From positions 96,001 to 160,000 of the forward strand of contig JBFMCP010000002.1 in NCBI GenBank assembly GCA_040754455.1: a stretch of DNA of 64,000 nt, read 5' to 3'. A model generated the notes under the pieces. That model had not been told where the DNA came from and did no database searches. It saw nothing but the letters and a program-made list of their open reading frames with translations. A program made the position numbers and the translations under genes. The stretch's first letter is position 1. Each line of letters opens with the position of its first letter. Below, piece by piece: positions 1 through 19,013 of the stretch. The DNA is from Nitrospirota bacterium (GTDB lineage Bacteria; Nitrospirota; Thermodesulfovibrionia; Thermodesulfovibrionales; Dissulfurispiraceae).

Positions 1-4
1 TAGA

Positions 5-3525: not shown

Positions 3526-3546
3526 CTTTAAAGGAGGATCACAGCA

Positions 3547-3810: not shown

Positions 3811-3813
3811 GCC

Positions 3814-4851: not shown

Positions 4852-4864
4852 AACGGAGGAATAG

Positions 4865-5251: not shown

Positions 5252-5694
5252 CTTATCCCTTTGATGGGGTAAGCTGCGAGGTCTGTAAGGAGAGGTTGCA
5301 GGAGGAAGGCTCTGAGCCGGCTTGTTTCGAAGGGCAGTGCGCCCAGGAGACCAGGAACCTTATCAGGGCCTTTATCCTTGCGAAGGAGGATTTCCCTGGC
5401 GTCTCTTGTGACGCCTGCCGGGATGCTCTGGAAAAGGACGGCTACGATCCGGAGTGCATCGAGGGAGAGTGCAAGCTTCCTCCTCTCGATCCCCTCGGCG
5501 CAAGGATTCTGGAAATCAGGCAGAGATTGCTCTCGCTTAATGAGCTTGTCGATGCGGGAACAATTTTAAGGCTTTACGATGTTGATCTCGTAGATCTGGA
5601 GTTGCTGGCTGCAGTAGAGGAAGAGTTAAAGGAGCTTCGAGATGAGGAGAACAAGGACAAGAATAATGATCCCGGAAGCAGGCGCGGCAAGTAA
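5236..5694 (+). CDS. Tail assembly chaperone GT extension reached by -1 frameshift
   Basis: The -1 frame is open from CCCAAAC through ORF 5296-5694 and carries a duplicated CxxC motif. Confidence 0.75.
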   Translation, partial: PKRTIAYPFDGVSCEVCKERLQEEGSEPACFEGQCAQETRNLIRAFILAKEDFPGVSCDACRDALEKDGYDPECIEGECKLPPLDPLGARILEIRQRLLSLNELVDAGTILRLYDVDLVDLELLAAVEEELKELRDEENKDKNNDPGSRRGK

Positions 5695-5772
5695 CGCAAA
5701 GAACCCGACGATTCCGCCATATACGACGGCAGCGGATCCGCAGAGCCAGAGTAATGTTTTAAGAAGTCCCAT
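5626..5772 (-). CDS. 48-aa hydrophobic membrane protein (moron, candidate superinfection exclusion)
   Basis: MGLLKTLLWLCGSAAVVYGGIVGFFALLAAPASGIIILVLVLLISKLL*; extended -10 lies 6 nt upstream of the ATG. Confidence 0.6.
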   Translation of the reverse strand: MGLLKTLLWLCGSAAVVYGGIVGFFALLAAPASGIIILVLVLLISKLL

Positions 5773-5778
5773 AAAGGA

Positions 5779-5787
5779 ATTATATCA
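5779..5787 (-). promoter_or_regulatory. Extended -10 promoter TGATATAAT (leaderless transcript)
   Basis: Perfect TGnTATAAT 6 nt before ATG 5772 on the minus strand. Confidence 0.6.
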
Positions 5788-8423
5788 TGGCTGAAATTGC
5801 AATTCATATCCGTGCCAATGACGATGCAACACGAATTTTCAAGAACGTTGCCGACAGTGTGGGTGCTTTCGGTGAAGCCTGCAAGCGTGCCGAGAGCAAG
5901 GTCTGGGATTTCGTCAAGGGACTCGGGGCTTTCGAAATCATCAAGAGTGCCGCCGGCAGGCTGCGGGAGCTCGCTGCCGGCACCCTGGGCGTCGCCTCGT
6001 CGAACGAGCTGTATATAACCACCCTTACTACGCTGCTCGGCTCTCAGGAAGCGGCCAATCAGAAATTTAAGGAGCTTAATGATTTCGCCCGTGCTACGCC
6101 TTTCCAGATTGACGGCTTGATCAAGTCGTTTATCAATATGAAATCCATGGGCCTCGACCCTACCATTGAGACTATGCGCATTCTCGGAGATACCACCGCG
6201 GCCCTCGGAGGGGGCGAGGAAAAGTTTATGGGTATCTCCCGCGCCCTGGGACAGATCCAGACGAAAGGGAAGGTTAGCGCCGAGGAGCTGATGCAGCTTG
6301 CCGAGCAGGGCGTGCCTGCCTACGAGATCCTGAAGCAAAAGCTGGGACTCACGGCGCAAGAGGTGGCCAACATCGGCAACGCGGGGCTTTCCTCTGAAAA
6401 GGCGATACAAGCTCTCCTGTCGGGTATGGGCGATCGATTCGGCGGGCAGATGAGCAGTATGCAAACGACGTGGAAAGGTTTGATAGAGGAAATAAAGAGC
6501 TTCTGGCGTGACTTTGTTTCTTTAGTGGCTGATGCAGGGGCCTTCGACAAACTGAAAGGCTATATCTCAGATCTCCGCGATGCGGTGAACGAGGCCTTTG
6601 ACAGCGGCAAAGCACAGGAGTGGGCGCGGTCAATCTCGTCGGCGGTTGAAACGGCCGTAGGGACCGTGAGAGCCGTAGGCAGTGCAATAGATACGCTTAC
6701 GAGCCAGTTCGATGAGCTCTTTATCATGCTTTCAGCTGGCACGTTGACAGCCATTGCAGTCAATTTCGATGCGATAGTAGCAGCACTCGGACGTTTAACA
6801 GCCGCGTCGTCGATAGCCGGCGCAACCATAGCGCAAGTGATGCTGCCGGCATTGGCCGCGCTCATAGGCTACAAGATCGGGGAGATCGTTGATTATGTTA
6901 CTGACCTGTCCGGAGCCGGCACGCAGCAGATTGATCAAATAATGAGCGATGTTGCTGAAGAACAGAAGTTCCTTGATGAGCGGGCATCGAAGTATAACGA
7001 TACGATCAAAGAGCTGGGGATGAAGTCATATAAGGAGCTGAACGCCGCCATTAAATCGGGTTCTGTTGTAATGGATGAGGCGAGTGGAAAGTGGAAGCGT
7101 TATGTCGAAGAAACGAAAAGCTCAGCGACGGAAAGCGAGGCAGTGAAAAAAGTTATTTCCGGTGCGTCTGAGTCCGTCGAGAGCTTTAAGGTGAAGATCG
7201 ATAACCTCAACCCCTCGGTTGATAAGCTTGCAAAAGAGGAGGCTGAGCTCTACAGGACCGCGGAAAAGCTGTTTAAGGAAATGGATAAACAAAAAGGGTT
7301 GCCGTTCGAAGAGCGCCTGAGAATGCAGCAGCAGATCAATGAGGAGCTGAGGCGCGGCCTTGAATATCTGCGCGAATCGGATGCACGGGAGAAATATATT
7401 CAGCTCGCTGAAAAGGCGAGGGGAGTTATTGAAGAGGAGATCAAGGGGTATGATCGGCTGCGCGACAGCATGGTGAAAGCCTATGACGATGCCATGCAGA
7501 AAGCCCAGGGGTATTACGAGCTGGCGGACAAGCTCAAACAGGCGGCTGATGATTCCCGGTCGAGACGGGCGGCGAGAGAGGCGAGGCCGCTAACACCGGA
7601 TGAGGAATTCGATGCGAACTACAAAAAAATTAAAGACATCTTCAGCAAGGAGAGTCTCAATTTTATTGATCCTGAACGCACGCAGGAGGCTCTGGGCGTC
7701 CTGAATGATTTTGCGGATAAGTATCAGAACTTCCACAACAGCTTCGGTTCCAGCATGGCCTTTGAAATGGGCAGGGCGAATAACATGATCAAAGAGCTGG
7801 AGTCAAAGCTTGATAACATGGCAGTGGACGCAGAGACTTCAGGCCAGGCATGGGAGCGGTTTGCCAATAAACAGATACAGGCGATCCAGTCGGTGGACCA
7901 GTGGGTTGTTTATCTGCACGAGGGAGTGAGCAACCTTAATGCCGATATCACCGCAGTGAAGGAATTCAAGCTCGATGTTTCCTCTGCTCAGGCGAAGCTT
8001 GAGGCGCTTGCTATGCAGATATCTTCGGTGTATCAGATGATGAACAGCGTTTCGCAGCCGCGCGGCTCTGGCGCTGTGGTGACTTCTACCACCTACAGCC
8101 TTGCCGATACCTACAGCCAGCTCCAGGTAAATTCCAACTCGCAGGCATGGGCCGATTACGCCAGTTCGCTGGATTGGAATACTCCTTACCACGGCGGCAC
8201 GCGGTATGTCTCCGAAACAGGGCCTCGCTGGCTGCTTCGCGGTGAAGAGGTCCGCAATCCTCGGGAGGCCAGCAGAGGCAACCAGAACACGACGCAGGTC
8301 GTGTTTTCAGAAGGGAGCATCCAGATCATCTCCCAGGGCAATGGCATATCGGAGCAGGATCTGGATAAAGCGGCCAGGCAGCTGGTGGCAAAAGTCGAAG
8401 AGTATTCCAATAGGAGGTTATAG
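5787..8423 (+). CDS. Tape measure protein
   Basis: 878 aa; tape-measure domain (FARATPF, GQIQTKGKVSAEEL.QLAEQGVP), long helical region. Confidence 0.93.
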   Translation: MAEIAIHIRANDDATRIFKNVADSVGAFGEACKRAESKVWDFVKGLGAFEIIKSAAGRLRELAAGTLGVASSNELYITTLTTLLGSQEAANQKFKELNDFARATPFQIDGLIKSFINMKSMGLDPTIETMRILGDTTAALGGGEEKFMGISRALGQIQTKGKVSAEELMQLAEQGVPAYEILKQKLGLTAQEVANIGNAGLSSEKAIQALLSGMGDRFGGQMSSMQTTWKGLIEEIKSFWRDFVSLVADAGAFDKLKGYISDLRDAVNEAFDSGKAQEWARSISSAVETAVGTVRAVGSAIDTLTSQFDELFIMLSAGTLTAIAVNFDAIVAALGRLTAASSIAGATIAQVMLPALAALIGYKIGEIVDYVTDLSGAGTQQIDQIMSDVAEEQKFLDERASKYNDTIKELGMKSYKELNAAIKSGSVVMDEASGKWKRYVEETKSSATESEAVKKVISGASESVESFKVKIDNLNPSVDKLAKEEAELYRTAEKLFKEMDKQKGLPFEERLRMQQQINEELRRGLEYLRESDAREKYIQLAEKARGVIEEEIKGYDRLRDSMVKAYDDAMQKAQGYYELADKLKQAADDSRSRRAAREARPLTPDEEFDANYKKIKDIFSKESLNFIDPERTQEALGVLNDFADKYQNFHNSFGSSMAFEMGRANNMIKELESKLDNMAVDAETSGQAWERFANKQIQAIQSVDQWVVYLHEGVSNLNADITAVKEFKLDVSSAQAKLEALAMQISSVYQMMNSVSQPRGSGAVVTSTTYSLADTYSQLQVNSNSQAWADYASSLDWNTPYHGGTRYVSETGPRWLLRGEEVRNPREASRGNQNTTQVVFSEGSIQIISQGNGISEQDLDKAARQLVAKVEEYSNRRL

Positions 8424-8425
8424 AT

Positions 8426-8608
8426 ATGGCAAAGAAATCGATGTGGACCATCAGCATGACCCGGTGTACTACCTGTCCGCTCAAAGATGATTGTCCGGAC
8501 AGAGCAGAGATACTCAGAACGCTCTCAGTGCTTACCAATAAGATGCATCTGGACCGTACCACCGAGGGCGGCGCTGCGGGTACGATCATTGTCAACTGCG
8601 GGGCGTAA
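8426..8608 (+). CDS. Small Cys-containing hypothetical protein
   Basis: SD AGGAGG; CxxC-x5-C...C. Confidence 0.55.
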   Translation: MAKKSMWTISMTRCTTCPLKDDCPDRAEILRTLSVLTNKMHLDRTTEGGAAGTIIVNCGA

Positions 8609-8971
8609 GTGAACGTCCGGTTCGATCATGCAAACGGCTCCCTGGTGTTTACCAGGAACCCGGAGCTGCCCCATCCTCAGAGCCTCGAGCTGCTGCAGGC
8701 CGACGAGCGGAGCACCGGAGGAGAGCCGCTTCCGTGTGACTACCTTGCCGAGGAGGGCATTATCGAACGCTACTGGCCGGGCATGCCGAAGATCGATTTC
8801 GACGGCCTGCTTAACTTTTTCAGCAACGTCGTCGACGGCATCAGCAAGATCTTTATTTTTACCGATGCCGACAGCAGCGCGAAGAGCGTAAGATTTGCTT
8901 TTCCTAGGATTGAATGGCAAGAGGTGGCATTTGAAATGTACGCAGTAAAAATACAGCTCAGGGAGGCTTAG
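8609..8971 (+). CDS. Putative distal-tail (Dit/gpM-like) protein
   Basis: 120 aa after the TMP; paralogous to the C-terminus of 10294-11271. Confidence 0.55.
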   Translation: MNVRFDHANGSLVFTRNPELPHPQSLELLQADERSTGGEPLPCDYLAEEGIIERYWPGMPKIDFDGLLNFFSNVVDGISKIFIFTDADSSAKSVRFAFPRIEWQEVAFEMYAVKIQLREA

Positions 8972-8974
8972 ACA

Positions 8975-9727
8975 ATGGCGATACAGGCGAGTGATATCAA
9001 GGTATACGGTTCGGCGAGCATGCCGGATGACGATGCGGCAACGAATATAGGCGGGGCGATCAACACAGGCATCAAGGTGGAGTTCACCGATATCGCCCCT
9101 GCGGGCCAGGTCGAGATGTTCTCGAGCAGCGCTGCGGATACTACGCAGCAGGTGACGATCACCGGGCGCAATGCCGCCGGTGAGATTGTGACCGAGACCA
9201 AGAATCTGAACGGCACCACAGTGGTGGCTTTTACCACTACCTTCGAACGAATACTGAAGATCGTCATGTCAGCCGTGGCCGTAGGGACCATCACCGTGCG
9301 CGAGAGCGTGGGCGCCGAGGTGCTCATTACCATTGAGCCCGGTATCACCCAGGTGCGAAAAGTGTTCTACAACGCCGTTGCCCCTTCAGAAGGATCGATC
9401 GACTTCTATGAGAAGATCTTCTTCAAAAACACCCATGCCTCACTGACGCTCACCGAGGCAAAGATATCGGAATACGCGGACCCCTCCGGCAAGATCACCT
9501 TTGCCCTGGAGAACGCACTCGACGGCACTGATACGAACGGTGTCGGCAATAACCGTTACGTCGCTCCTGCGGGATACACGTTCAACAATACAGAGAAGAA
9601 CGTTGCCAACAGCGGCAATCATACCGCTGAGAAGGCCCAGGGTGTCTGGCTCAAGCTCACGCTTACGAGCACGGATGAGCCGACGAAGACCACGTACACC
9701 CTCAGAGAGTCGGGAGTGACCATTTAA
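8975..9727 (+). CDS. Virion structural protein (beta-rich)
   Basis: 250 aa Thr/Gly-rich ORF in the tail-tip module; SD GGAGG. Confidence 0.6.
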   Translation: MAIQASDIKVYGSASMPDDDAATNIGGAINTGIKVEFTDIAPAGQVEMFSSSAADTTQQVTITGRNAAGEIVTETKNLNGTTVVAFTTTFERILKIVMSAVAVGTITVRESVGAEVLITIEPGITQVRKVFYNAVAPSEGSIDFYEKIFFKNTHASLTLTEAKISEYADPSGKITFALENALDGTDTNGVGNNRYVAPAGYTFNNTEKNVANSGNHTAEKAQGVWLKLTLTSTDEPTKTTYTLRESGVTI

Positions 9728-9728
9728 T

Positions 9729-10292
9729 ATGCCGAATGCAAAGAAGATCACCCTGGACTATAACGAGACCGGCAAGACCGTCTATGCGATCGTACGGCGT
9801 GAGACTGACAGCTATCGCCTGAATGATGCTGACGGTTCTTTCGCTGAAGCGCCTGCGGACCCTTACCTTGCGCTGGCAGAAGACTCGGTGATCAAAGGCC
9901 GCTACGAGGTGAGCGAGTCGCGGGCGGCATGGAACGACGGCAAGTACACCGTGGCGATCTATAAGCAGACGGGAGGAAGCCCTGCCCCTGCAAGCGATAC
10001 CCTGATCGGCTCCGGAGAGATATATATCATCTCTGACACCGAGATCGATCTCCAATATCTGCATGACAAGGTCCTGGAGCTGAGGACCGGCAACATGCGC
10101 ATCCTCTTCACTGTTGCAACCGTCCCTGTCCCTGCGCGTAACGTCGAGGTCGGCAGGATCAACTATCAGACCATCCAGATCAAGCGCGATGCCGATGTCG
10201 ATTGGGCCAGCCCGGTAAGCTCGAAGACGCTCTATTTCTGGTACGACGCGATGGGCGATATCAACCCCTCCAAGGTGGGAGAATCGGGGTAA
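9729..10292 (+). CDS. Hypothetical tail protein
   Basis: Tightly coupled 187 aa ORF in the tail operon. Confidence 0.6.
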   Translation: MPNAKKITLDYNETGKTVYAIVRRETDSYRLNDADGSFAEAPADPYLALAEDSVIKGRYEVSESRAAWNDGKYTVAIYKQTGGSPAPASDTLIGSGEIYIISDTEIDLQYLHDKVLELRTGNMRILFTVATVPVPARNVEVGRINYQTIQIKRDADVDWASPVSSKTLYFWYDAMGDINPSKVGESG

Positions 10293-10293
10293 G

Positions 10294-11271
10294 ATGCTTG
10301 CGCTGTCAATTGCGACAAAGGGATACTGGGCTGACAACAATACGCTCAGTATCGCTACGGGTGGCTATCGTCGACGGCTGAGCCAGGTCTCCAGTGACCG
10401 CACCGTTTCCACTGCCTGGACACGGTGCGTATGCATTGATCGGACATTCTCCGGAGACCGGCGCAAGGCTGTAGTCGGATACGGATCGCTCCATGTCGAT
10501 TTCCTGCAGAACAACAATCTGATACTGAGAAATGTGGTGCTCTCCTATGATTTCGTCAAGGCTTTTTACGATGCTGCCGTGATGCCTGTCGAATACCGTC
10601 TCGGGGTGCAGCGTGATGCATCACTCCAGCTCGATCGCTACGCTCCGCTGCATGCCGATGCGATGATGCGGACGGACTTCCTGAAAGCCGTCCGGCCCGA
10701 GAGGACATTTCCTGCGGCGTATGAAAAAGCGCGCCTGATGAGCGTCGTAATCCCCTGCGATGCCCGTGCGTCTCGTTCTGCAACAGTGATTTTACCTTTT
10801 GATGGACTCAAGCGTCCGGTTATAGACCATCTATTACTCTTTGACATAATTACAAAGCTGGACAAGGATGTGCAACTGCCGATCGGTATTACCGGCAGTT
10901 GGGGAAAGGTTGTCTTCCTGCATCCTGCCGGCGCCGTGCATTTTTATAGACGGCCGTTGAAGCAGCAGCCGCAGGGATTTCAGATGTTCCAGCCCTCGGG
11001 CAGAGACAGCAATGGAGATTTCTACAGCACTACAAAAAGCACGCTCAGGATCAGGGATGAACAGCTTGCATTCCGCAATATCAGCGACTATACCATAGAA
11101 TCTCTGCGCTATTTTATTCTGAATGCGGCCCGGGGGACCAAGAATAAGTTCACCTATTTTGATGTCTACAATGTACCGCATACGGCGAAGTTTACTGAAC
11201 GTAAATTCTCCTGGCGGCGGACCGGCTACAACAAAAACGACCTGGTGATCTATCTGGAGGTCTATTTATGA
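10294..11271 (+). CDS. Tail protein with 14-aa repeats and a C-terminal Dit-like domain
   Basis: Exact 14-aa periodicity at 10540-10875; C-terminus aligns with 8609-8971. Confidence 0.6.
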   Translation: MLALSIATKGYWADNNTLSIATGGYRRRLSQVSSDRTVSTAWTRCVCIDRTFSGDRRKAVVGYGSLHVDFLQNNNLILRNVVLSYDFVKAFYDAAVMPVEYRLGVQRDASLQLDRYAPLHADAMMRTDFLKAVRPERTFPAAYEKARLMSVVIPCDARASRSATVILPFDGLKRPVIDHLLLFDIITKLDKDVQLPIGITGSWGKVVFLHPAGAVHFYRRPLKQQPQGFQMFQPSGRDSNGDFYSTTKSTLRIRDEQLAFRNISDYTIESLRYFILNAARGTKNKFTYFDVYNVPHTAKFTERKFSWRRTGYNKNDLVIYLEVYL

Positions 11272-13760
11272 GTAGGACCCTCACCCCGGGATTTGCCGCC
11301 GAGCTCGCCAAGAAAACCGGTACAAAGCCGGTATGGTTTTTAGGTGCACAACTCGGCACCACAACGCTCTATATCGGCGACAATGAGCTTACTATTCCCT
11401 CCTGGCAAGGCGGCATCACCGTAAAACCGTGGGTCAAGGACTGGGGAGAGGTCCGTGAAGGAATCGATAACAGCCTTGGAGAATTCAAGGTTTCGGAGTA
11501 CTCCATCTCGTGCCTGAACGATACGAGTATCACGGAGAATCTTGTCTATTACCTGACCAATTTCCGTCCGGAAAAGAACACGGTCAGCCTGTATCTATGG
11601 TTCCTCGACCTTGACCCGGTTACAGACCCGCCGCTGGAGATCTCCAGGGGCTATATCAAGAACTATCCCTGTCCTGATGACTACAACGTTACCCTGCAGA
11701 TCCAGGATGAGACGCTGAAGCTCGAGCGCCACTATGTGGGTGCCAAAGTGAGCCTGGCCGATTACCCCGGCGCGGACCCCGACGACGTGGGGCGCGTGAT
11801 CCCGATCCCCTTCGGCACGGTGAAGAAGCTCAGAGCCCTCGCGCTCGATGCCGGGTACAAGACGAGTCTGCCTGCGATCCTGCAGCCGGGCGTGACGAAT
11901 TTCAACGTGAGCGACGGAGAACGTTTGAGCGCGGGCAAGGTTATCACCATTGATGAAGAGGACATCTATATCATCAATATCTCGGAAGACAACATCACCA
12001 ACTGCACCAGGGGCTACAACGGCACCCTCGAGGCCAAGCACCTGCGAGGCGCCGTCGTATGGGAAAAGAAGGACATCTTTGTCTATGTCGTTTCCGATAA
12101 GCCCCTCGACAGCATGGGCAAGGTGTATGGCAGGGTCGGCGATGCCGAGGTAGATATCACCAGCATTGTCACCAGGTACACCGGCCAGCCGGGCAGTGTG
12201 CTCACCGGTTATGAAGGGAAAGCGGTTGTTACCGTTCCCGGGTATATCACCGTGCAGCAGGCGGTGGACCTGCTCGTTAGCGACGGCATAGGCGTGAATG
12301 ATGCGATCGCCATAGTGGACGGCATTGCGGTCAATGACACCATCTCGGTCTACGACACGATAGCGGTGAGCGATACGATCGGCGTCTCGCAGGGATACCA
12401 TGGCCATGCAGTGAGTTCGCCTTCGGCAGCTTATTACGGTAATGGGGCAAGCCATAGTGGCTCTAATGCTTCGTTTTCCGGATCGGATGCAAATTTGCGC
12501 GATCAGAATACAGGAACAGGGTTGACTGCAAATTTCAATGGTTCGCAGACAATCCAAAGCTTCTCTGCCACTATGACAGTTACCTTTCCTGCTTATAGCG
12601 GGCCGACGCCGCAGTCGGTCTATCTCTGTGTCAATTATCGAGGCGGCTTTAACTCAGGCGGGTATATTAGGCTGAATGGAGTCGATATCGGTGCCGAAGG
12701 AAGTAATGTAACCAAAAAAATCAATGTCGGCACGTCAGTGCCGAGCTCAATCGCTTTGTCATGTTATTCGCCGGGAGCCCAGTATGTGCAAGGCGGTTAT
12801 TTAGTGGGCACTGAAATCTGGTATGAGGTGCAATCGAATGCCACATCCTCAGATCCCGCTGCGGGCGTGGCGAAGACCGGCTCGGCGAGCAAGAGCGGCT
12901 CGGCAAGCAAGAGCGGCTCGGCATCGAAATCAGGCACCACATCCCGCTCCGGAGCTGCGACCAAGACCGGCACTGTAGCGCTCTACGGCAACTCCGTGGC
13001 CAATACGCTGGTAGGCGACGCTATCCTGGTCGACGTGACGCGCAGCTTTGCGGACTGTGATGCGGCCATGCAGAGCATTGCGAGCGACGCCGGTGTTGCG
13101 AGCTTCCAGGGTATCGGCAGCCTGCCGGGATACTACGCATTCAACGGCGCGATCACCGAATACAAGCCCGCGCTCTATTGGCTGAATTATCTCGCCTTCC
13201 AGTGCCGGAGCCGCTTCCGTATGCACCTGGGTACCGCGCAGCGCATCTACCGCCCTGACACGATCACGCCGGTGGAGACGTTACCTACGGTCGTCTTGAG
13301 GCAAGACGGCAAGAGGGCGCTCTACAGAGACCAGACGCCCTACAGCGATATTATTAACAAAATGAATCTCCTCTATGACAGGGATTACTCTCAGCAGACA
13401 CGGGACGAGGGCTCGTATAGGGGCAACTCCAAGGACAGTTCAGTGAACGGAACACTGAGGCAGCTGCTGGATGCCTCGATCGCCGACTACGGCCTTTGCG
13501 AGCGCCCTGAACTTTTCAGGTTCGACTTCGTGAGCGATCCGACAATGGCGGACCATTTGCGGGACTTTTACCTTTCGTATTATCACTACCGGCATTGGAC
13601 AGATGTCTTCGAGGAGTACTGGATATATGCCGATCTCGAGTTCGCCGATGGGGTGACGCTCGGATTTTTGGGCAACCGGGCTGCCGAGATCCTTGAGACG
13701 AGGTACCGCCCCGGTAATAGGGACAACCTGGATATAATCGGCTTCGTGGCCGTGGAATAA
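11268..13760 (+). CDS. Tail tip / baseplate hub protein with an inserted putative binding domain
   Basis: 830 aa; IPIPFG and CTRGYNGT motifs, C-terminal SIADYG; hexapeptide repeats flank an insert. Confidence 0.7.
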   Translation: MSRTLTPGFAAELAKKTGTKPVWFLGAQLGTTTLYIGDNELTIPSWQGGITVKPWVKDWGEVREGIDNSLGEFKVSEYSISCLNDTSITENLVYYLTNFRPEKNTVSLYLWFLDLDPVTDPPLEISRGYIKNYPCPDDYNVTLQIQDETLKLERHYVGAKVSLADYPGADPDDVGRVIPIPFGTVKKLRALALDAGYKTSLPAILQPGVTNFNVSDGERLSAGKVITIDEEDIYIINISEDNITNCTRGYNGTLEAKHLRGAVVWEKKDIFVYVVSDKPLDSMGKVYGRVGDAEVDITSIVTRYTGQPGSVLTGYEGKAVVTVPGYITVQQAVDLLVSDGIGVNDAIAIVDGIAVNDTISVYDTIAVSDTIGVSQGYHGHAVSSPSAAYYGNGASHSGSNASFSGSDANLRDQNTGTGLTANFNGSQTIQSFSATMTVTFPAYSGPTPQSVYLCVNYRGGFNSGGYIRLNGVDIGAEGSNVTKKINVGTSVPSSIALSCYSPGAQYVQGGYLVGTEIWYEVQSNATSSDPAAGVAKTGSASKSGSASKSGSASKSGTTSRSGAATKTGTVALYGNSVANTLVGDAILVDVTRSFADCDAAMQSIASDAGVASFQGIGSLPGYYAFNGAITEYKPALYWLNYLAFQCRSRFRMHLGTAQRIYRPDTITPVETLPTVVLRQDGKRALYRDQTPYSDIINKMNLLYDRDYSQQTRDEGSYRGNSKDSSVNGTLRQLLDASIADYGLCERPELFRFDFVSDPTMADHLRDFYLSYYHYRHWTDVFEEYWIYADLEFADGVTLGFLGNRAAEILETRYRPGNRDNLDIIGFVAVE

Positions 13761-13771
13761 AGGAGGTTACC

Positions 13772-14074
13772 ATGTTAGCCAGGACAGTAGCAGCAGGAGG
13801 ATCGGTCTCGTATGGGCACACCCAGGCCGTAGCCGCGCAGGTCTGGACGATTGCCCACAATCTCAACAAAGATTTGATTGCTTCTGTTTGGGCGTATAGT
13901 GAGTACCCCAAGTTTTGTGGGGACGGGGCCTATTGCGGAGACGGCTCTTACTGCGGTCAACCGGGAAACACTTATGCGGATATCCCGTACTCATGGATTA
14001 CGAAAGTGGATGCAAACACGATCAGGATCGGCTTTGCCTCACCCGTCTCTGGCAAGGCGACCATTCTATTTTAA
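13772..14074 (+). CDS. Small tail-fibre-associated protein
   Basis: SD AAGGAGG; WTIAHNL and DANTIRIGF...SGKA motifs; CGDG repeat. Confidence 0.6.
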   Translation: MLARTVAAGGSVSYGHTQAVAAQVWTIAHNLNKDLIASVWAYSEYPKFCGDGAYCGDGSYCGQPGNTYADIPYSWITKVDANTIRIGFASPVSGKATILF

Positions 14075-14086
14075 AAGGAGGACACA

Positions 14087-14401
14087 ATGAGAGGAATACC
14101 GGCACACCTCAATACCCGGCATGATGTAGAGCAATGCGTTGAGCTTGCATTGGCCGGGGAGCTGGACAGGGCAGAGCTAAAGAAGAGGATTGAAAGGCTG
14201 CTCAGCGACGACATGGTATGGAACTTCAAGACCGAAGTCGACGACACCTATCAGCCCGCGCAGAATGAAAAGGTTATCACCGAAGATGTAGGTGGTATTA
14301 CAAAGCACTTTTGCTTTGAATTGGTAAGCAACCCGGCTGCCGTCTATCTGCGCATGGGATTCGCGAAGGCAGAGCTGCAGGCATTCATCAATCAGCTATA
14401 G
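14087..14401 (+). CDS. Hypothetical protein (possible fibre adaptor/chaperone)
   Basis: SD AAGGAGG; 104 aa, directly upstream of the DGR target. Confidence 0.6.
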   Translation: MRGIPAHLNTRHDVEQCVELALAGELDRAELKKRIERLLSDDMVWNFKTEVDDTYQPAQNEKVITEDVGGITKHFCFELVSNPAAVYLRMGFAKAELQAFINQL

Positions 14402-14410
14402 GAGGACTAC

Positions 14411-15496
14411 ATGGGACAGAGCATTATATGGAAAGATGATCCGGCATATTCGACGAATGCCGCTAACTTTCACAAGAGCATGGACATCAGGCCGGGCCTG
14501 TTCAACAATTACCTGCAGGTTAATGCTACAAAGACCGGCATCATCGTCAAGGCCGATACCATCATCCCCCTGAAAAGCGGGTCCACGTGGAAGGCGTACC
14601 TGTTCACCTCTGACAGCGAGGTGACGACGCTCGACACCGGCGCGCTTACCCTGGGGACGCATTACTACGTCTATCTCTGCGATAACGGTACGGACAACGG
14701 GCTGCTGCTCCTCTCTGCGAACTCCACCGCGCCGCAGGGCTACACCGCATCGGACTCCAGGAAGATCGGCGGCTTCCACTACGGCAGAGTGCGCAATAGC
14801 ATCACCGTGGCCGACGTCACCAGCGGCGCCGTGGTCCCCAACTCGGTGTGGGACCTCTACAACCGTCCCAAGTGCTCTCCGGAGGGCATGGTGAAGATCC
14901 ACGAGAACCTCTGGTGCGATATCTACCTCGCCTCGGTCAACGAGGCGATCACCTTTGCTGCGGGCAATGGCTCCCCCACTAAGGCAGGCTCCTGCAAGAG
15001 CGCCTACAATGCAGCGCCTCTGACGGGCACAGAGGGCCTCAGCGGCTACAACTTCCTCGAGCTGGCCAGAAGGTCCGGCAAGAGACTTTTGACCCTTGCA
15101 GAATGGCTGCAGGCAGCGCACGGGAGTCCACAAGGAAATAACGGGGATAATAACAACGCCTGGTCAGCTACCACCAATTCAGCAAGGACAAATACGGGCT
15201 CTGTGGCCAATGCAATCAGCCTTTTAAATGTGGTAGACTGTGTGGGAAATGTCTTGGAATGGCTTGATGAATTTTCGAATCGACAGGATACCACGAGCTG
15301 GAACTGGTACGACGTTATGACAGGCATGAGTGTGGGTCAGCTTTATCTGGCGAACAACACGGGATTGATACAGTATTTAGCCGGTGGCCATTGGAGCCCT
15401 GGCGTCTACGCTGGCTCGCGGTGCGTTAATGCCAATAGCTCTCCGTGGAGTGTCTCTCCGGATATCGGCTCCCGGCTGGCCTGTGACGCTCTGTAA
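14411..15496 (+). CDS. DGR target: major tropism determinant (Mtd)-like receptor-binding protein, C-type lectin fold
   Basis: Motifs shared with Bordetella BPP-1 Mtd (AP.GYT....RKIGGFHY, SVWD...RP, W.DIYL, GKRL, GG.W...GSR); VR at the 3' end. Confidence 0.92.
   Translation: MGQSIIWKDDPAYSTNAANFHKSMDIRPGLFNNYLQVNATKTGIIVKADTIIPLKSGSTWKAYLFTSDSEVTTLDTGALTLGTHYYVYLCDNGTDNGLLLLSANSTAPQGYTASDSRKIGGFHYGRVRNSITVADVTSGAVVPNSVWDLYNRPKCSPEGMVKIHENLWCDIYLASVNEAITFAAGNGSPTKAGSCKSAYNAAPLTGTEGLSGYNFLELARRSGKRLLTLAEWLQAAHGSPQGNNGDNNNAWSATTNSARTNTGSVANAISLLNVVDCVGNVLEWLDEFSNRQDTTSWNWYDVMTGMSVGQLYLANNTGLIQYLAGGHWSPGVYAGSRCVNANSSPWSVSPDIGSRLACDAL
15380..15486 (+). repeat. DGR variable repeat (VR)
   Basis: 107-bp ungapped match to 15931-16037 with 13 mismatches, all opposite TR adenines. 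Confidence 0.97.
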
Positions 15497-15537
15497 TCTG
15501 AAATCTGATAATCTGTTTTGTTTTTTGTCGTTGTATC

Positions 15538-15557
15538 AGGCGGGCGAAAGCCCGCCT
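15538..15557 (+). promoter_or_regulatory. DGR target-recognition hairpin/cruciform
   Basis: AGGCGGGC-GAAA-GCCCGCCT, a perfect 8-bp stem downstream of the VR. Confidence 0.8.
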
Positions 15558-15590
15558 CTGTCGAAAAAATTTTTTAGGGGTTAGGTACAG

Positions 15591-15923
15591 ATGAACGATC
15601 TCGTGATTTACCAGAAGGTGTACGATTTCACGCTGTACCTTTTCCCGATTGTAGAGAAGTTTCCGAAGCATGAGAAGTTTGTCCTCTGTACGCACGTCAA
15701 ATCATGCGTGCTCGATATTGCCCGGCTGATCATCAGGGCCAATAAGAGCCGGACGAAAAAGGCGATCCTCTACGACATCGATGTGAGGATCGAGGAGCTG
15801 AAGTTTCTGCTCCGGCTTGCTCATGACAGGAAATACCTCTCCAACAAAAGCTACGAGCACAGCAGCAAACTGCTGCTCGAAATAGGAAGGCTGTTAGGAG
15901 GATGGATCAAAAGTGTGGGTTAA
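15591..15923 (+). CDS. avd: DGR accessory variability determinant (four-helix bundle)
   Basis: LVIYQKVYDF, FPKHEKFVL, LKFLLRLA, EIGRLLGGWIK; lies between target and TR. Confidence 0.93.
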   Translation: MNDLVIYQKVYDFTLYLFPIVEKFPKHEKFVLCTHVKSCVLDIARLIIRANKSRTKKAILYDIDVRIEELKFLLRLAHDRKYLSNKSYEHSSKLLLEIGRLLGGWIKSVG

Positions 15924-15930
15924 GGGCGAT

Positions 15931-16037
15931 ACCGGTGGCAATTGGAGCAATGGCGTAAACGCTGGCTCGCGGTGCGTTAATGCCAATAACTATCCGTGGA
16001 ATGTCAATACGAATATCGGCTCCCGGCTGGCCTGTGA
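15931..16037 (+). repeat. DGR template repeat (TR)
   Basis: A-rich copy of the VR (25 A; 9 AAY codons in the VR frame), starts 8 nt after the avd stop. Confidence 0.97.
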
Positions 16038-16230
16038 GTGTATAGGGCTTACAGAGATGATGTCTCTCTACGGAGCATCACCAGTGACATATACAGTCAG
16101 GCCCTTGATCCCTGCCGCAAGGCAAAAATTGGAGAGGCTCTGTGCAGTGAGTACGGACAGCAGTCCTTAAAATTGTGCAGGCCGCATAATTTCGGTCGGT
16201 TAATAGCTCCGCTTCAGCCGGAGAACTGTT

Positions 16231-16340
16231 AAACCCGAAATCTCAGAATCGTAAAAACGGTCGGTTAGTTGGCAACTCCTCCGGGAGAGCTGCCAAGCCC
16301 ATCAAAAACCGTTTTACGGTTTTCAGATTTCGGGTTTTTT
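16231..16340 (+). other. Long imperfect inverted repeat in the TR-RT spacer, ending in a T-run
   Basis: AAACCCGAAATCT...CGTAAAAACGGT pairs with ACCGTTTTACG...AGATTTCGGGTTT; inner TTGGCA/TGCCAA stem. Confidence 0.75.
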
Positions 16341-16359
16341 GGTTTCAGGAGGCTGACCG

Positions 16360-16545
16360 ATGGGCGGGAAGAAAGACGACAAGGAATGGAAGCGAGTATT
16401 GGTGAAGTGCCTGGAGGATCTGGGCAAGGAGGGGATTGTCCCTCCGGATGTGAAGAATCTGACCGGCAGGCTTGTCCTCGATCTTAATATGAGCCAGGGC
16501 GGGGTAACGGATCTGGATGTCTCGGTGAAGAGGAAATTTAAATAA
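16360..16545 (+). CDS. 61-aa hypothetical protein between TR and RT
   Basis: SD AGGAGG; the stop lies 1 nt before the RT ATG. Confidence 0.65.
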   Translation: MGGKKDDKEWKRVLVKCLEDLGKEGIVPPDVKNLTGRLVLDLNMSQGGVTDLDVSVKRKFK

Positions 16546-16546
16546 G

Positions 16547-17581
16547 ATGCCTAAGACCTATAACGGCCTGTTTGAGAAGATCTGCGATTTCGAGAACATC
16601 TATGGCGCATACCTCAAGGCGAGAAAATGCAGGCGGTACCGGGAGGAAATACTCAGGTTCAGCCGCAATGTGGAAGAGGAACTGTTGACGCTCCAGGATG
16701 AGCTGGTGCTGGGCACCTACAGGACCGGCCAGTACAAGCGGTTCTTTGTGTTCGAGCCAAAGAAACGAGAGATATTCGCGCTTCCCTTCAGGGACAGAGT
16801 GGTGCACCATGCAATCTGTACGATTATCGAGCCGCTCTTTGAGCGGAAGTTTATCTTCGACTCCTACGGGTGCAGGACCGGCAAAGGGCAGCATGCCGGG
16901 TCGTCCCGGCTGGTCTCCTTCCTGAGACGGGCGCAGAGAGTATGGGATGAGGTCTATTGCCTGAAGGCCGACGTGTCGAAATTCTTCCCCTCGGTGGACC
17001 ATGAGGCATTGAAGGGCATCATACGGCGGACCATACGCTGCAAAAGGACCCTGCAGCTTATCGATTGCATCATCGACAGCGCGCCTGAAGAGAAGGGGAT
17101 ACCGATCGGGAATCTTACCAGCCAGCTCTTTGCGAATATCTACCTGAATGAGCTTGATTACTTCGTAAAGAACGAGCTGCAGGCGAAGTTCTATCTGCGC
17201 TATATGGATGATTTTGTGATCCTCCATAACGATAAGAAAGTGCTGCATCAGTGGATGGCGCAGGTCGGCGAATTCCTGAGAGAAAGGCTTAAGCTTGAGC
17301 TCCATGCAAAGACCTCTGTCTTCCCCATCTCCAGGGGCGTCGACTTCCTCGGCTATCGCACCTGGCCGACGCACAAGCTCCTCAGGAAGCGCAATATCAT
17401 CGGCATGAAACGGAAGCTCAAAAAGCTTTCTGCATTATACAGGGACGGCAGGATTACCCTTCAGGTCGTGAGGCCGGTCATAGCCTCATGGCTCGGCCAC
17501 GCGAAGCACGCGAGCAGCTATAACGTCGTGAGGAGGATGCTCGGGAACGCTGTGTTTAGTAGGAGTTCATTATCGGGATGA
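16547..17581 (+). CDS. brt: DGR reverse transcriptase
   Basis: 344 aa; FRDRVVH, KADVSKFF, GIPIGNLTSQLFAN, RYMDD, VDFLGY; no maturase/endonuclease extension. Confidence 0.95.
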   Translation: MPKTYNGLFEKICDFENIYGAYLKARKCRRYREEILRFSRNVEEELLTLQDELVLGTYRTGQYKRFFVFEPKKREIFALPFRDRVVHHAICTIIEPLFERKFIFDSYGCRTGKGQHAGSSRLVSFLRRAQRVWDEVYCLKADVSKFFPSVDHEALKGIIRRTIRCKRTLQLIDCIIDSAPEEKGIPIGNLTSQLFANIYLNELDYFVKNELQAKFYLRYMDDFVILHNDKKVLHQWMAQVGEFLRERLKLELHAKTSVFPISRGVDFLGYRTWPTHKLLRKRNIIGMKRKLKKLSALYRDGRITLQVVRPVIASWLGHAKHASSYNVVRRMLGNAVFSRSSLSG

Positions 17582-17707
17582 TGTTATAATCATTATTGAT
17601 AAATTTCAAAACTATAAGCCTAAGCAGTGCAGTAAATGAAAAAGCCGCCGATAATAAGAAAAGGGACAATCAATAACTCCGCCTGTCGGAGAGCTATTAG
17701 AGACCCT

Positions 17708-18142
17708 ATGAGAAGAAAGAGAAAAATACTTATCGTTGATGATGAAGAGTTTGTACGTGCCGCTGTTCGCAGAATCCTTGAATTTAATAATTATTCGATT
17801 ATCGAGGCGCTCTCCGGGCCTGAGGCTTTAAAAAAATTGTCTGAAAAACCCGACTTGATCATTGCTGATTACCATTTAGGCGGCATGTCTGGGTTATGCC
17901 TCTTGATTGAGATCCGAAAGGCCAGTGATATCCCTATTATCATGTTGACCGCGGACTCCTCACAGAAAATAGCGGTGCAGTGGTTTCGTGAGGGAGGAAA
18001 TGATTTTATCCATAAACCTTTTGACAGCGATTTTCTTTTAGTCGTCGTTGAGCGCACACTGCGTTATGCTGCTGCCATGAGGGCAATGATGTCACAGCCC
18101 ACGAAAACCCGTAAGCCTCGCTCGAAGAGATCCTCGAAATAG
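17708..18142 (+). CDS. Stand-alone response regulator receiver protein (cargo gene; alternative start 17636)
   Basis: ILIVDDE, PDLIIADY, IIMLTA, FIHKPF; AT-rich; TGTTATAAT at 17582-17590. Confidence 0.85.
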   Translation: MRRKRKILIVDDEEFVRAAVRRILEFNNYSIIEALSGPEALKKLSEKPDLIIADYHLGGMSGLCLLIEIRKASDIPIIMLTADSSQKIAVQWFREGGNDFIHKPFDSDFLLVVVERTLRYAAAMRAMMSQPTKTRKPRSKRSSK

Positions 18143-18592
18143 GGGCATGATCGCTTTAAGTACGTCCGCTTTTGACGATGACGGGGCTATGGATGAGGTG
18201 CAAGTTTCTTTTATTGGTTCAGTTGTTTGCAAATAGGGATCGACCTGTGAATAAACATTCAGGGCAATGATGATATGAGCAAGCAAGGGGATGCCTACCA
18301 ACTCACCCACCTCGATCAGCCTCTTTGTTATCTCTATATCTTTCTTGCTTGGCGAGGGGTCTCCGCTTGGATGGTTATGAACTAAGATGACAGCATAGGC
18401 GCTATTTCTGATTGCCTTCCGGAAGACCTCTCGGGGATGGATCAATGAATTGGTGAGCGTCCCCCTCGATATGAGTTCTTTCTCAATAAGATCCTTTTTT
18501 GCATTCAGATGCAGCAGATACACATTCTCCCGATCCTCCAGTTCGAGAAATTGCATTGTTTGATAGACATCGGCAGCGTTCCTGATCTTCAT
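18092..18592 (-). CDS. radC: RadC-like JAB domain protein (short form)
   Basis: E...IHPREVFR...HNHPSGDPSPS..D JAMM motif. Confidence 0.88.
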   Translation of the reverse strand: MKIRNAADVYQTMQFLELEDRENVYLLHLNAKKDLIEKELISRGTLTNSLIHPREVFRKAIRNSAYAVILVHNHPSGDPSPSKKDIEITKRLIEVGELVGIPLLAHIIIALNVYSQVDPYLQTTEPIKETCTSSIAPSSSKADVLKAIMPLFRGSLRARLTGFRGL

Positions 18593-18628
18593 GACATACT
18601 CCTTATTTTTTTTGTAAAGATTCTACCG

Positions 18629-18644
18629 AGCAATGATTGTGCCA
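18629..18644 (-). promoter_or_regulatory. sigma54 (-24/-12) promoter upstream of radC
   Basis: TGGCAC-AATCA-TTGCT, consensus match. Confidence 0.7.
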
Positions 18645-18806
18645 AAACAAAATAAGAGTTATGAAACTGTTTTTCAATGATTTGGGGGAAGCTTCGGCGT
18701 GATGGTTATACAGAAAATGGATAACACTATTCATTTTTTGTATAACTACAGGGAAGCGGAGGTCGAGAGATATCCCCCCTCTCCTTTTGCACAATCTGGG
18801 TTTGCA

Positions 18807-18828
18807 AAAAGTACCCTAAAAGTACCCT
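18807..18828. repeat. Tandem 11-bp direct repeat, candidate integrase arm-type sites
   Basis: AAAAGTACCCT x2, about 110 bp from the tRNA-Glu 3' end. Confidence 0.55.
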
Positions 18829-18937
18829 TTGAAGAGCAGAAAAGATACCGAAAATAGCGGGTAGTTACCGATTGAAGCTGTTATGTCTGGACGGTGAAAA
18901 AGGTTATAAATCAGAGGATCTTGCTGATAAAAAAGAG

Positions 18938-19013
18938 TGGTGGTCCCAACGGGAGTCGAACCCGTGTTTTAGCCTTGAGAGGGCCACGTCCTAGGCCACT
19001 AGACGATGGGACC
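18938..19013 (-). tRNA. tRNA-Glu(CTC), probable prophage att site
   Basis: GGTCCCA...CT-CTC-AA...GTTCGACTC...TGGGACCACCA cloverleaf. Confidence 0.96.

Follow-up and report, generated by a model that had tools for sequence, protein, structure and literature searches.

An apparently intact BPP-1-type diversity-generating retroelement with an Mtd-like target in a prophage of an uncultivated Nitrospirota bacterium

Results

Organization of the locus

The DNA analyzed here, hereafter the window, is a stretch of 64,000 nucleotides from the genome of a Nitrospirota bacterium. It opens inside a prophage of about 57.9 kb that ends in a tRNA-Glu gene (Table 1). An exact 45-bp direct repeat bounds the prophage (C2:57056-57100 and C2:114938-114982), and its left copy adjoins an integrase gene (phrog_1, E = 2.5e-51). 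PHROG matches within the element include repressor-like and CII-like regulators, a primase, ParB, a methyltransferase and the large terminase, together with structural proteins (portal, head decoration, tape measure and minor tail). These features bear out the prophage setting given in the original prediction, and indicate that a diversity-generating retroelement (DGR) occupies the right end of a temperate phage integrated at tRNA-Glu. Two further genes (17636..18592), for a response regulator and a RadC-like protein, lie between the reverse transcriptase (RT) and attR, inside the att repeats. A genome of the same genus (G001) contains no match to the RT.

The window also encodes ATP sulfurylase, the APS reductase beta subunit, a 659-aa FAD-binding protein in the AprA position and Qmo-like genes, which makes the proposed sulfur-cycling anaerobic host a reasonable reading. 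The host is an uncultivated groundwater bacterium with a gene set for sulfate activation and APS reduction.

Table 1. Features of the DGR and of its prophage context (positions are those of the window)
Feature	Position	Strand	Remarks
Right-hand part of ~57.9 kb prophage	1..18982	+	Whole element G000:C2:57056-114982; left 38.9 kb upstream of window
Tape measure gene	5787..8423	+	phrog_973, E = 5.6e-43; tail module upstream of DGR
DGR target gene, Mtd-like receptor-binding tail protein (by homology)	14411..15496	+	361 aa; Pfam, PHROG and PDB matches
Variable repeat (VR)	15380..15486	+	Ungapped TR match; ends 10 nt before target-gene stop codon
Invariant GC-rich VR 3' end (IMH-like)	15462..15486	+	Same as TR end; VR and TR diverge right after
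GC-rich inverted repeat	15538..15557	+	GAAA loop, 8-bp stem; 51 bp after VR
avd (accessory variability determinant)	15591..15923	+	110 aa; Pfam bAvd, E = 6.4e-34; NCBIfam NF033474
avd-side strand GGATCAA of putative avd:spacer duplex	15904..15910	+	Complementary to 16105-16111
Template repeat (TR)	15931..16037	+	107 bp ungapped VR match; starts 7 nt after avd stop
Spacer RNA proper	16038..16197	+	Elements ordered as in BPP-1 Sp
Spacer stem-loop	16047-16076	+	Predicted element of spacer RNA
Spacer strand complementary to TR 16029-16034	16098-16103	+	Predicted
Spacer strand complementary to avd	16105-16111	+	Predicted
Spacer stem-loop, GCAA loop	16113-16124	+	Followed by A-run 16125-16128
Spacer long interrupted stem-loop	~16134-16184	+	Predicted
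Extra conserved RNA	16201..16342	+	Hairpins 16201-16231 and 16232-16336 (105 nt), then U-run, terminator-like
Nested 61-aa ORF	16360..16545	+	AGGAGG ribosome-binding site; stop 1 nt before RT start codon
DGR reverse transcriptase (RT)	16547..17581	+	344 aa; RVT_1, E = 5.7e-21; phrog_1423, E = 2.8e-147; 8ub7
Response-regulator receiver, stand-alone	17636-18142	+	Prophage cargo; Pfam Response_reg, E = 1e-24
RadC-like JAB protein	18092-18592	-	Prophage cargo; Pfam RadC, E = 6.1e-39
attR core	18938..18982	-	3' 45 nt of tRNA-Glu(CTC), gene 18938-19013; ARAGORN, Rfam

A repeat pair that differs only at template adenines

The VR and TR align without gaps over 107 bp at an offset of 551, with 13 mismatches. 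The TR base is A at every one of them, while the VR carries C at seven, G at four and T at two. With 25 adenines among the 107 nt of the TR, the probability that 13 randomly placed mismatches would all fall on a TR adenine is about 3e-10. The edge of the pair is set by its first mismatch (15380 G / 15931 A), before which the bases differ, so the repeat may be 106 bp long with 12 mismatches. Read in the frame of the VR, the TR holds nine AAY codons, and changes confined to its adenines reach no stop codon. Eleven codons differ between the two copies; ten of these differences change the amino acid and one (GTA>GTC) is silent. The theoretical repertoire is 4^25 = 1.1e15 DNA variants and 3.9e13 protein variants. 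Recomputation thus reproduced the earlier description of this pair in full: its gapless 107 bp, its 13 adenine mismatches, its ten amino-acid-changing codons, its AAY codons, its freedom from adenine-reachable stops, and an upper bound of some 10^13-10^15 DNA variants from 23-25 adenines.

A search for remote VRs, suggested at the time as a check, was run with the TR against the whole 3.27 Mb assembly and found none. Only the TR itself (E = 1.4e-50) and the present VR (E = 1e-33) gave meaningful matches, and five further matches had E of 1.98 or more.

avd and the reverse transcriptase

DGR reverse transcriptases carry a signature made of an (I/L/V)GxxxSQ motif in the palm and YMDD. In the RT of the window, IGNLTSQ and YMDD align with IGSLTSQ and YMDD of the BPP-1 enzyme Brt, and D142, D221 and D222 are invariant among 15 aligned RTs; catalytic and template-contacting residues are kept. 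Its closest solved relative is Brt itself (chain 8ub7; E = 6.4e-72, 245.9 bits, over the full length); the top-scoring group II intron RT structure has E = 2e-19, and group II and retron-type RTs all score 73.3 bits or less. This comparison places the enzyme in the DGR clade and not with group II intron, retron or defense RTs. The avd and RT reading frames are both free of interruption, as had been claimed together with the SQ motif and YMDD, and Avd passes the NCBIfam equivalog model NF033474 (E = 3.5e-36; 123.7 bits against a cut-off of 80). Beyond this locus, an adenine-biased repeat pair lies near 25 of 31 loci recovered by RT similarity (11 of 13 viral and 14 of 18 genome loci).

Other identities for the RT were tried and rejected. 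The group II intron RT/maturase equivalog TIGR04416 gave 134.5 bits, below its cut-off of 300, and the NCBIfam models of retron and Drt RTs remain far short of theirs. Rfam gave no group II intron RNA anywhere in the 64-kb window.

The target is a distant homologue of Mtd

The target protein matches the Pfam domain mtd_2nd (PF21916; E = 2.5e-26, 92.6 bits against a cut-off of 24.6), a Pfam FGE-sulfatase/C-type-lectin family (E = 5.3e-9, residues 216-357) and the tail protein family phrog_11262 (E = 6.9e-59). Residues 45-360 align over 316 residues with the Mtd chains of the PDB (1yu4, residues 76-377; E = 4.4e-26) at 29-30% identity; the first 44 residues show no alignment with Mtd. In this alignment the VR falls on the VR of the Mtd crystal-structure chains. 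The Mtd-like target of the original prediction therefore stands, and these matches identify the protein as a true Mtd homologue, with the Mtd second domain and a C-terminal C-type-lectin domain that bears the VR; the VR lies at the 3' end of the reading frame, within the predicted lectin fold. On the same strand, the gene comes immediately after the block of tape-measure and tail genes. A location at the tail tip, binding to a host receptor and tropism switching are suggested by this homology and gene position.

Signals at the target site

The final 25 bp of the VR are the same as the final 25 bp of the TR, and by analogy with BPP-1 this GC-rich end may act as the IMH. The inverted repeat further downstream is a candidate target-recognition hairpin or cruciform. 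Its stem GGCGGGC/GCCCGCC is kept in four of four related elements, while the loop of two of them (L023 and L024) is not GRNA. Hairpins described after VRs have GC stems of 7-10 bp and GRNA loops (Guo et al., 2011), and the 51 bp that separate the present hairpin from the VR exceed the 4-34 bp seen in those examples.

An extended gap between TR and RT

Between TR and RT lie 509 nt, a distance that is 144 nt in BPP-1 and ranges from 51 to 257 nt among 19 relatives. Besides a BPP-1-like spacer, this gap contains a pair of additional conserved hairpins that end in a U-run, and a 61-aa ORF. Neither its unusual length nor the small gene was pointed out in the original prediction.

The predicted spacer resembles the Sp RNA of BPP-1 (Handa et al.) in the order and shape of its elements rather than by sequence homology. 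When the structure derived from the window's own sequence is laid on four sequences, 94.9% of cells pair, against 32-50% with the partners slid, a result equalled by 31 to 39 of 500 shuffles; four of the pairs show compensatory changes across the same four sequences. The GGATCAA strand near the 3' end of avd is a putative counterpart of the BPP-1 'cPRT Stop', and may share its function. In L023 and L024 both strands of the proposed avd:spacer duplex have changed at one position so that pairing is kept, and at that position L025 has an A.C mismatch.

An additional structured RNA at 16201-16342 was not expected from BPP-1. Its consensus structure shows compensatory changes and its sequence is kept in four of four elements; the folding z-score of 16038-16360 is -6.6. 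The small ORF that follows encodes a protein with 79-87% amino-acid identity in L025, L023, L024, P0001 and P0002 and no family match in Pfam, PHROGs or NCBIfam. Its pN/pS of 0.08-0.19 (pS 0.55-0.76) argues for purifying selection. The long-gap module as a whole (extra hairpins, U-run and ORF) is common to three other elements. It is thus kept in at least four, even where target and TR have been swapped. Tentatively, the extra RNA and the small gene might separate an abundant avd-TR-spacer RNA from a lower, coupled expression of the RT. They offer a tractable side question on how the levels of DGR RNA and RT are set.

It is conceivable, albeit rather unlikely, that the RNA extension of about 140 nt and the 61-aa protein form a previously undescribed DGR accessory module. 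The terminator would then define a discrete avd-TR-spacer RNA, and the protein, translationally coupled to the RT, would join or throttle the assembly of RT, Avd and RNA.

Natural alleles of the variable repeat

VR variation was read from assembled contigs of four public runs from two studies. Runs X1 and X2 may derive from the source sample of the window, and allele frequencies and rare variants lie outside the view of such contigs. These assemblies contain at least three VR alleles, whose differences fall almost exclusively on TR-adenine positions. In run X2 the VR forms a bubble of two 133-nt contigs whose depths together approximate the flank depth of 43.8. The major contig (depth 34) is identical to the window and the minor one (depth 12.5) has 15 differences, 14 of them at TR-adenine positions. 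A third allele, in run X4 at a depth of only 2.1, shows six changes in its loose end and two listed changes, all at TR-adenine positions, for at least eight of nine differences overall. In the 969 bp of target gene upstream and the 439 bp downstream of the VR, a single substitution is listed (14982, in X3 and X4). The adenine-specific polymorphism proposed as a test is therefore present at contig level and, since the alleles differ almost only at TR adenines between near-identical flanks, the element is probably active in nature. In each of X2, X3 and X4, the TR piece set on the VR differs at 12 sites, as many as a TR like that of the window should give.

The one remaining difference of the minor X2 allele, 15448 G>A, falls on a guanine of the TR and converts a Trp codon to TGA. 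The allele would truncate the target protein, which fits relaxed selection in lysogens. The same change indicates that some changes in the VR are not directed by adenines.

Discussion

All the parts of a DGR lie here intact and in BPP-1 order (target, avd, TR, RT), in agreement with the complete, apparently intact BPP-1-type element of the original prediction, and we regard it as very probable that this right end of a tRNA-Glu-integrated temperate phage carries such an element, rewriting its VR as BPP-1 does. By the BPP-1 model, the RT-Avd complex would bind an RNA that extends from the 3' end of avd across TR and spacer. Cis-priming from the spacer would start reverse transcription, with random misincorporation opposite template adenines, and the resulting cDNA would take the place of the VR in the 3' end of the Mtd-like gene, with the GC-rich invariant end of the VR and the GC hairpin downstream as guides. 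This could recode as many as 14 codons for the ligand-binding face of the C-type lectin, at the tip of the tail protein, giving about 4e13 possible proteins, and phage progeny might bind altered host receptors. The parts, the adenine-specific pattern and the natural alleles are direct observations; how priming works, what the hairpin and spacer elements do, and that tropism switching is the function under selection are carried over from the BPP-1 model.

The element could also be a recently inactivated relic, in which the VR/TR differences and the metagenomic alleles would record past diversification that now persists as ordinary strain variation. Contigs cannot tell new events from standing alleles, and in one allele a nonsense change lies outside the TR-adenine positions. 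However, all the reading frames are intact, the RT keeps its catalytic and template-contacting residues, and in three runs the TR piece and the VR are separated by the same number of differences. Two alleles coexist inside one run, and the 107 bp of the VR show up to 15 differences among the three alleles, as opposed to one position in about 1.4 kb of flanks. We therefore consider a relic improbable.

Less probable still, and in our view very unlikely, is that the DGR serves the lysogen, its diversified protein being a host-surface or defense-related binding cargo rather than a tail receptor-binding protein. Its place at the extreme right arm, beside the cargo-like response regulator and RadC genes, would suit such a role, and most surveyed DGR targets are not phage tail proteins (Wu et al.). 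These points are set against the Mtd-specific second domain of the target, its alignment to Mtd over more than 300 residues, its match to a PHROG tail family and its position directly after the tape-measure and tail block on the same strand. That the repeats arose by chance or by a recombinational duplication unrelated to reverse transcription, for which their bare existence speaks and no more, is next to impossible given that every mismatch falls on the adenines of one copy, that avd and a Brt-like RT flank the pair and that the same pattern recurs at most of the loci found by RT similarity.

BPP-1-type DGRs are well understood and surveys list large numbers of them. The present element is ordinary in kind, a fresh example of a well-known system that changes no concept. 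Its value is that of a clean natural example, an intact Mtd-type DGR in the prophage of a groundwater bacterium, with VR alleles that coexist in field samples. The Mtd domain occurs in only 12 of 372 DGR targets (Wu et al.); since Mtd-type targets are such a small minority, a distant homologue enlarges the material for work on how the C-type-lectin scaffold accommodates variation.

Comparison with known systems

The locus has the gene order and strand of the annotated BPP-1 record (mtd, avd/bbp7, TR, brt). The RT is 41% identical to Brt over its full length and Avd is 31% identical to Bbp7. As in BPP-1, an Mtd-homologous target carries the VR at the same C-terminal place, the TR begins just past the avd stop, a GC hairpin with a GAAA loop follows the VR and the candidate spacer elements come in the order of the solved Sp RNA. 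The theoretical repertoire is also similar, with 25 adenines here and 23 in BPP-1 (Wu et al.). Unlike in BPP-1, the repeats measure 107 bp rather than 134 bp, the gap before the RT is more than three times as long and contains the two extra hairpins, the U-run and the nested gene, the proposed avd:spacer duplex has 7 bp instead of 11, 51 bp separate the VR and the hairpin, and the start of the target is unaligned with Mtd. The host is an environmental sulfate-metabolizing bacterium and not Bordetella.

Among 50,697 deposited phage records, the closest homologue of the target is found in Chromohalobacter phage YPCBV-1 (43% identity over 76% of the protein), alongside an annotated DGR protein; this similarity does not extend to the N-terminal 85 residues. 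A nearer relative of the whole element is a prophage DGR (L025, on G005:C9) in a metagenome-assembled genome titled 'Nitrospirae bacterium', which GTDB places in one family with the genome of the window. The two share 82% DNA identity from target to RT (86% identity for the RT itself), the Mtd-like target, the long spacer and the 61-aa ORF, and all ten mismatches of the relative's own TR/VR pair fall at adenines. After its RT, L025 carries a D12 adenine methyltransferase where the window has the response regulator and RadC. Locus L045, whose alignment figures are identical to those of L025, was taken as the same DNA.

Two IMG/VR contigs, L023 and L024, match the backbone of avd, spacer, 61-aa ORF and RT from just past the target stop, with a DNA identity of about 72%, and share the spacer structure and the stem of the post-VR hairpin. 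They differ in having another TR/VR sequence and a C-type-lectin target that lacks the Mtd second domain, which indicates that the target and TR have been exchanged as a module on a conserved backbone.

A complete retroelement of the Bordetella phage type

The element is a diversity-generating retroelement (DGR) of the kind described in the Bordetella phage BPP-1, and the original prediction to this effect proves real and correctly interpreted: all parts are present and intact, the substitutions are adenine-specific and natural alleles exist. The variable repeat (VR) and the template repeat (TR) align without gaps over 107 bp at an offset of 551 nt, and the TR base is an adenine at all 13 mismatches, as had been claimed. 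Since the TR has 25 adenines in its 107 nt, random placement of 13 mismatches would hit adenines only with p ~3e-10. The mismatch at 15380/15931 lies at the edge of the repeat and may fall outside it, which gives an alternative count of 12 mismatches over 106 bp.

The predicted coding properties were borne out by the codon count. Read in frame with the target gene, the TR contains 9 AAY codons; 11 codons differ from the VR, 10 of them changing the amino acid, and adenine changes alone cannot produce a stop from any TR codon. The proposed upper bound of 10^13-10^15 DNA variants compares with computed ceilings of 4^25 = 1.1e15 DNA variants and 3.9e13 protein variants. Remote VRs elsewhere in the genome had also been considered, and a TR search of the 3.27 Mb, 92-contig assembly yielded the TR itself and the VR already described, with five other matches at E values of at least 1.98 and no remote VR. 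A protein search of the same assembly with the reverse transcriptase (RT) matched the RT of the window alone.

Features of the cassette and its surroundings (positions in the window; spacer elements are putative, with the BPP-1 Sp RNA element they resemble)
Feature	Position	Evidence or description
Large proteins between tape measure and DGR	9729-11271; 11268-13760	
Target gene, 361 aa	14411-15496	Pfam mtd_2nd, E 2.5e-26; FGE-sulfatase/C-type-lectin domain, E 5.3e-9; PHROG 11262 'tail protein', E 6.9e-59
VR	15380-15486	
Short motif	15497-15520	
Candidate hairpin after VR	15538-15557	
avd	15591-15923	Pfam bAvd, E 6.4e-34; NCBIfam equivalog NF033474, 123.7 bits (cut-off 80)
TR	15931-16037	
Stem-loop just past TR	16047-16076	Avd-binding stem-loop
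Strand complementary to TR 3' end (16029-16034)	16098-16103	Priming duplex
Strand one nt on, complementary to avd (15904-15910)	16105-16111	cPRT Stop duplex
4-bp stem with GCAA loop, then four adenosines	16113-16128	Stem-loop and A-minor adenosines
Single-stranded stretch, then long interrupted stem-loop	~16134-16184	Thumb Ring and RT-binding stem-loop
31-nt hairpin	16201-16231	
105-nt hairpin, then U-run	16232-16336	
61-aa ORF	16360-16545	AGGAGG site; stop one nt ahead of RT start codon
RT	16547-17581	RVT_1; PHROG 1423, E 2.8e-147
Cargo between RT and attR	17636-18592	Stand-alone response-regulator receiver and opposite-strand RadC-like JAB protein, ~50 nt overlap
Second copy of 45-bp repeat	18938-18982	3' end of tRNA-Glu(CTC)
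tRNA-Glu(CTC) and tRNA-Gln(CTG)	18938-19182	
Host sulfur genes	38643-49834	
TauE sulfite-exporter-like genes	61282-63018	

The best matches of the target among solved structures are five crystal forms of the major tropism determinant (Mtd) of the Bordetella phage. The top one, 1yu4 (E 4.4e-26), places residues 45-360 on 76-377 and the VR-encoded tail over the VR of Mtd. Avd is 31% identical to Bbp7 of BPP-1, and the RT 41% identical to the BPP-1 enzyme Brt (E 3e-82). Among solved structures the RT matches 8ub7_A best (E 6.4e-72, full length), and group II intron and retron-type RTs are all at 2e-19 or worse. Comparing it directly with the annotated record of BPP-1 shows that the printed 8ub7 sequence is Brt. 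Its IGNLTSQ and YMDD motifs align on the corresponding residues of Brt, which contact the template base and incoming nucleotide according to the Handa et al. preprint. On the RT, the NCBIfam models for the group II, retron, Drt and Abi types all score far under their cut-offs.

RT-based scans retrieved 13 loci from viruses and 18 from genomes, and a scripted search found an adenine-biased repeat pair at 11 and 14 of these, respectively, several of the misses being truncated loci. Because such pairs accompany most RT-related loci, the RT belongs with the DGR RTs, the placement on which the original prediction hinged. The cassette matches no Rfam family, the sole Rfam matches of the window being three tRNAs, and its DNA similarity to deposited phages is confined to RT fragments of 120-180 nt and a single 71-nt fragment of the target.

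Natural alleles of the variable repeat

The stretch is present, as contigs only, in five public runs of groundwater and biofilm metagenomes that come from two studies; the window itself may originate from two of these runs. Four runs were compared over 14411-15925, an end chosen to keep the TR out. TR-bearing contigs placed on the VR (three records with 12 differences each) were the source of most VR differences and were excluded before alleles were counted; their equal count in runs X2, X3 and X4 is the expectation for a window-like TR.

In X2, the VR appears as a bubble of two 133-nt contigs over 15359-15491, with a summed depth of 46.5 against a flank depth of 43.8. One contig, of depth 34, matches the window exactly. 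The minor allele, of depth 12.5, has 15 differences, 14 of them at TR-adenine positions, and is also changed at 15428, 15434 and 15437, where the VR of the window retains an adenine. It carries 15448 G>A as well, at a TR guanine site, turning a conserved Trp codon (TGG) into TGA, and a sizeable subpopulation of lysogens may thus have a truncated target gene. A third allele comes from a contig of depth 2.1 in X4 that runs from the VR into avd, with six changes in a 17-nt loose end plus those at 15456 and 15461, all at TR-adenine sites; its ninth difference is missing from the listed ones.

Contig ends fall at the VR or close to it in X2 and X4, and in X3 both upstream (~15071, ~15167) and within it (15450). 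The remaining ~1.4 kb compared holds a single substitution, 14982 A>C, shared by X3 and X4. An active DGR would be expected to leave such a pattern, which is seen here at contig level and from events that cannot be dated. The adenine-position polymorphism that read mapping had been proposed to reveal is present among these contigs, the alleles varying mostly at TR-adenine sites.

A long spacer shared by a narrow lineage

The gap between TR and RT is 509 nt, compared with 144 nt between TR and brt in the annotated BPP-1 record and 51-257 nt, from coordinates, in 19 relatives whose TR precedes an RT of the same strand. Three elements share the long-gap form: L025, the prophage DGR of a genome of the same family (82% identity over the whole cassette), and two IMG/VR contigs, L023 and L024 (~72% identity, from just past the target stop codon to the RT). 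A metagenome locus, L045, gave the alignment figures of L025 and was taken as the same DNA and left uncounted. The region 16038-16360 is unique in the genome, folds much more stably than shuffled sequences (z = -6.6) and is more conserved than the TR when the window or L025 is compared with L023 or L024.

Set against the Sp RNA in the solved RNP of BPP-1 (Handa et al. preprint), the first 160 nt of the spacer can be read as the elements of that RNA in the same order (table). The pairings were located by eye and then counted, RNA duplex prediction between the spacer and the upstream or TR 3' segments having given long, loop-riddled solutions. Over the four sequences, 94.9% of cells are paired, a share that drops to 32-50% on sliding the partners, and 31-39 of 500 shuffles perform equally well; the count is weakly consistent with the proposed structure. 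Four proposed pairs show compensatory changes among these sequences, from one of which the structure was derived. One of these pairs is in the avd:spacer duplex, in which L023 and L024 combine a synonymous C>T in avd with a spacer G>A and L025 is an uncompensated intermediate. L023 has a 15-nt hairpin inserted into the GCAA loop, the stem being kept.

Beyond the BPP-1-like part lie two further hairpins, which are conserved and show a few compensatory changes. The longer one is terminator-like by its fold and U-run; a simple terminator scan did not flag it, owing to the 8-nt loop limit of that scan.

Candidate signals are also found on the target side. VR and TR share an identical, GC-rich 3' end of 25 bp and diverge immediately beyond it, and a candidate hairpin with an 8-bp GC stem and a GAAA loop lies 51 bp past the VR. 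In the work of Guo et al. (2011), the phage hairpins or cruciforms after the VR have GC-rich stems of 7-10 bp and 4-nt GRNA loops, lie 4-34 bp from the VR and are required in BPP-1. The stem is kept in all four members of the lineage, and the loop is not GRNA in L023 and L024.

Directly past the target stop there is also a short motif, TCTGAAATCTGNTAATCTGTTTT, conserved in all four related elements despite differing target genes.

A nested gene and an apparently exchanged target module

The 61-aa ORF has a pN/pS of 0.08-0.19 at a pS of 0.55-0.76 across the four elements, which marks it as a real gene. Neither Pfam, PHROG nor NCBIfam has a family for it, and a search of 5.8 billion proteins gave only 2 homologous clusters; its Atlas feature matches (0.81-0.83) fall under the meaningful level, and AlphaFold models it with low confidence (mean pLDDT 62.1).

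In L023 and L024 the same avd-spacer-ORF-RT backbone is combined with another TR/VR pair and with a C-type-lectin target that is not of the Mtd kind, and DNA similarity to them begins exactly past the target stop codon. The backbone has therefore been kept together as a unit while the target module was apparently exchanged.

Prophage and host

The window corresponds to G000:C2:96001-160000. A 45-bp exact direct repeat (contig positions C2:57056-57100 and C2:114938-114982) bounds a prophage of ~57.9 kb, in which the DGR target is the final gene of the tail block. From the integrase side, the prophage encodes a tyrosine integrase (phrog_1, E 2.5e-51), repressor-like and CII-like regulators, primases, ParB-like proteins and a methyltransferase, followed by large terminase, portal, head and head-decoration genes and, inside the window, by a minor tail protein, tail assembly chaperone, tape measure, several unassigned large proteins and the DGR. 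Two of these large proteins (table) have no Pfam, PHROG or NCBIfam match and presumably belong to the distal tail or baseplate of phages from an unsampled group; one of the two, of 830 aa, contains a short GSASKS-type repeat. After the RT, L024 and L025 have a D12 adenine methyltransferase where the window has its response regulator and RadC-like gene.

Several other features of the prophage were observed. An intact tRNA-Glu(CTC) stands at its integrase-distal end with tRNA-Gln(CTG) just beyond, and a partial tRNA copy adjoins the integrase. A second tyrosine-recombinase-like gene (G000:C2:77510-78523; phrog_1, E 5.9e-26) lies mid-prophage but outside the window, beside amidoligase-like and ParB/methyltransferase genes.

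An RT search of related genomes gave no match in a genome of the same genus (G001) and matches in 4 of 40 others; in that of the same family (G005), the RT is 86% identical. The description of the host as a sulfur-cycling anaerobe is supported by a dissimilatory sulfur gene set outside the prophage, with ATP sulfurylase, APS reductase beta, three Qmo/Hdr-like proteins and H+-pyrophosphatase, in which a 659-aa FAD protein occupies the AprA position. TauE sulfite-exporter-like genes lie elsewhere in the window.

Mechanism and relation to known systems

The reading with the best support is that the element performs standard mutagenic retrohoming of the BPP-1 type. An RNP of RT and Avd would assemble on an RNA comprising avd, TR and spacer, cDNA synthesis would be cis-primed with misincorporation at adenines, and the cDNA would replace the VR. 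From the likeness to BPP-1 we infer where priming takes place, what the hairpins do and that tropism is switched. As to the extra RNA and the small gene, we conjecture that they are, most simply, a lineage-specific expression module, in which the terminator would delimit the RNA, and read-through with coupled translation would supply the RT.

According to Wu et al., ORFs nested among DGR components are found in all architectures; the 61-aa ORF is conserved, though within a narrow lineage only. The DGR of the window belongs to a thoroughly characterised kind, of which it is a minor architectural variant; ordinary in concept, it is of use as an example from nature.
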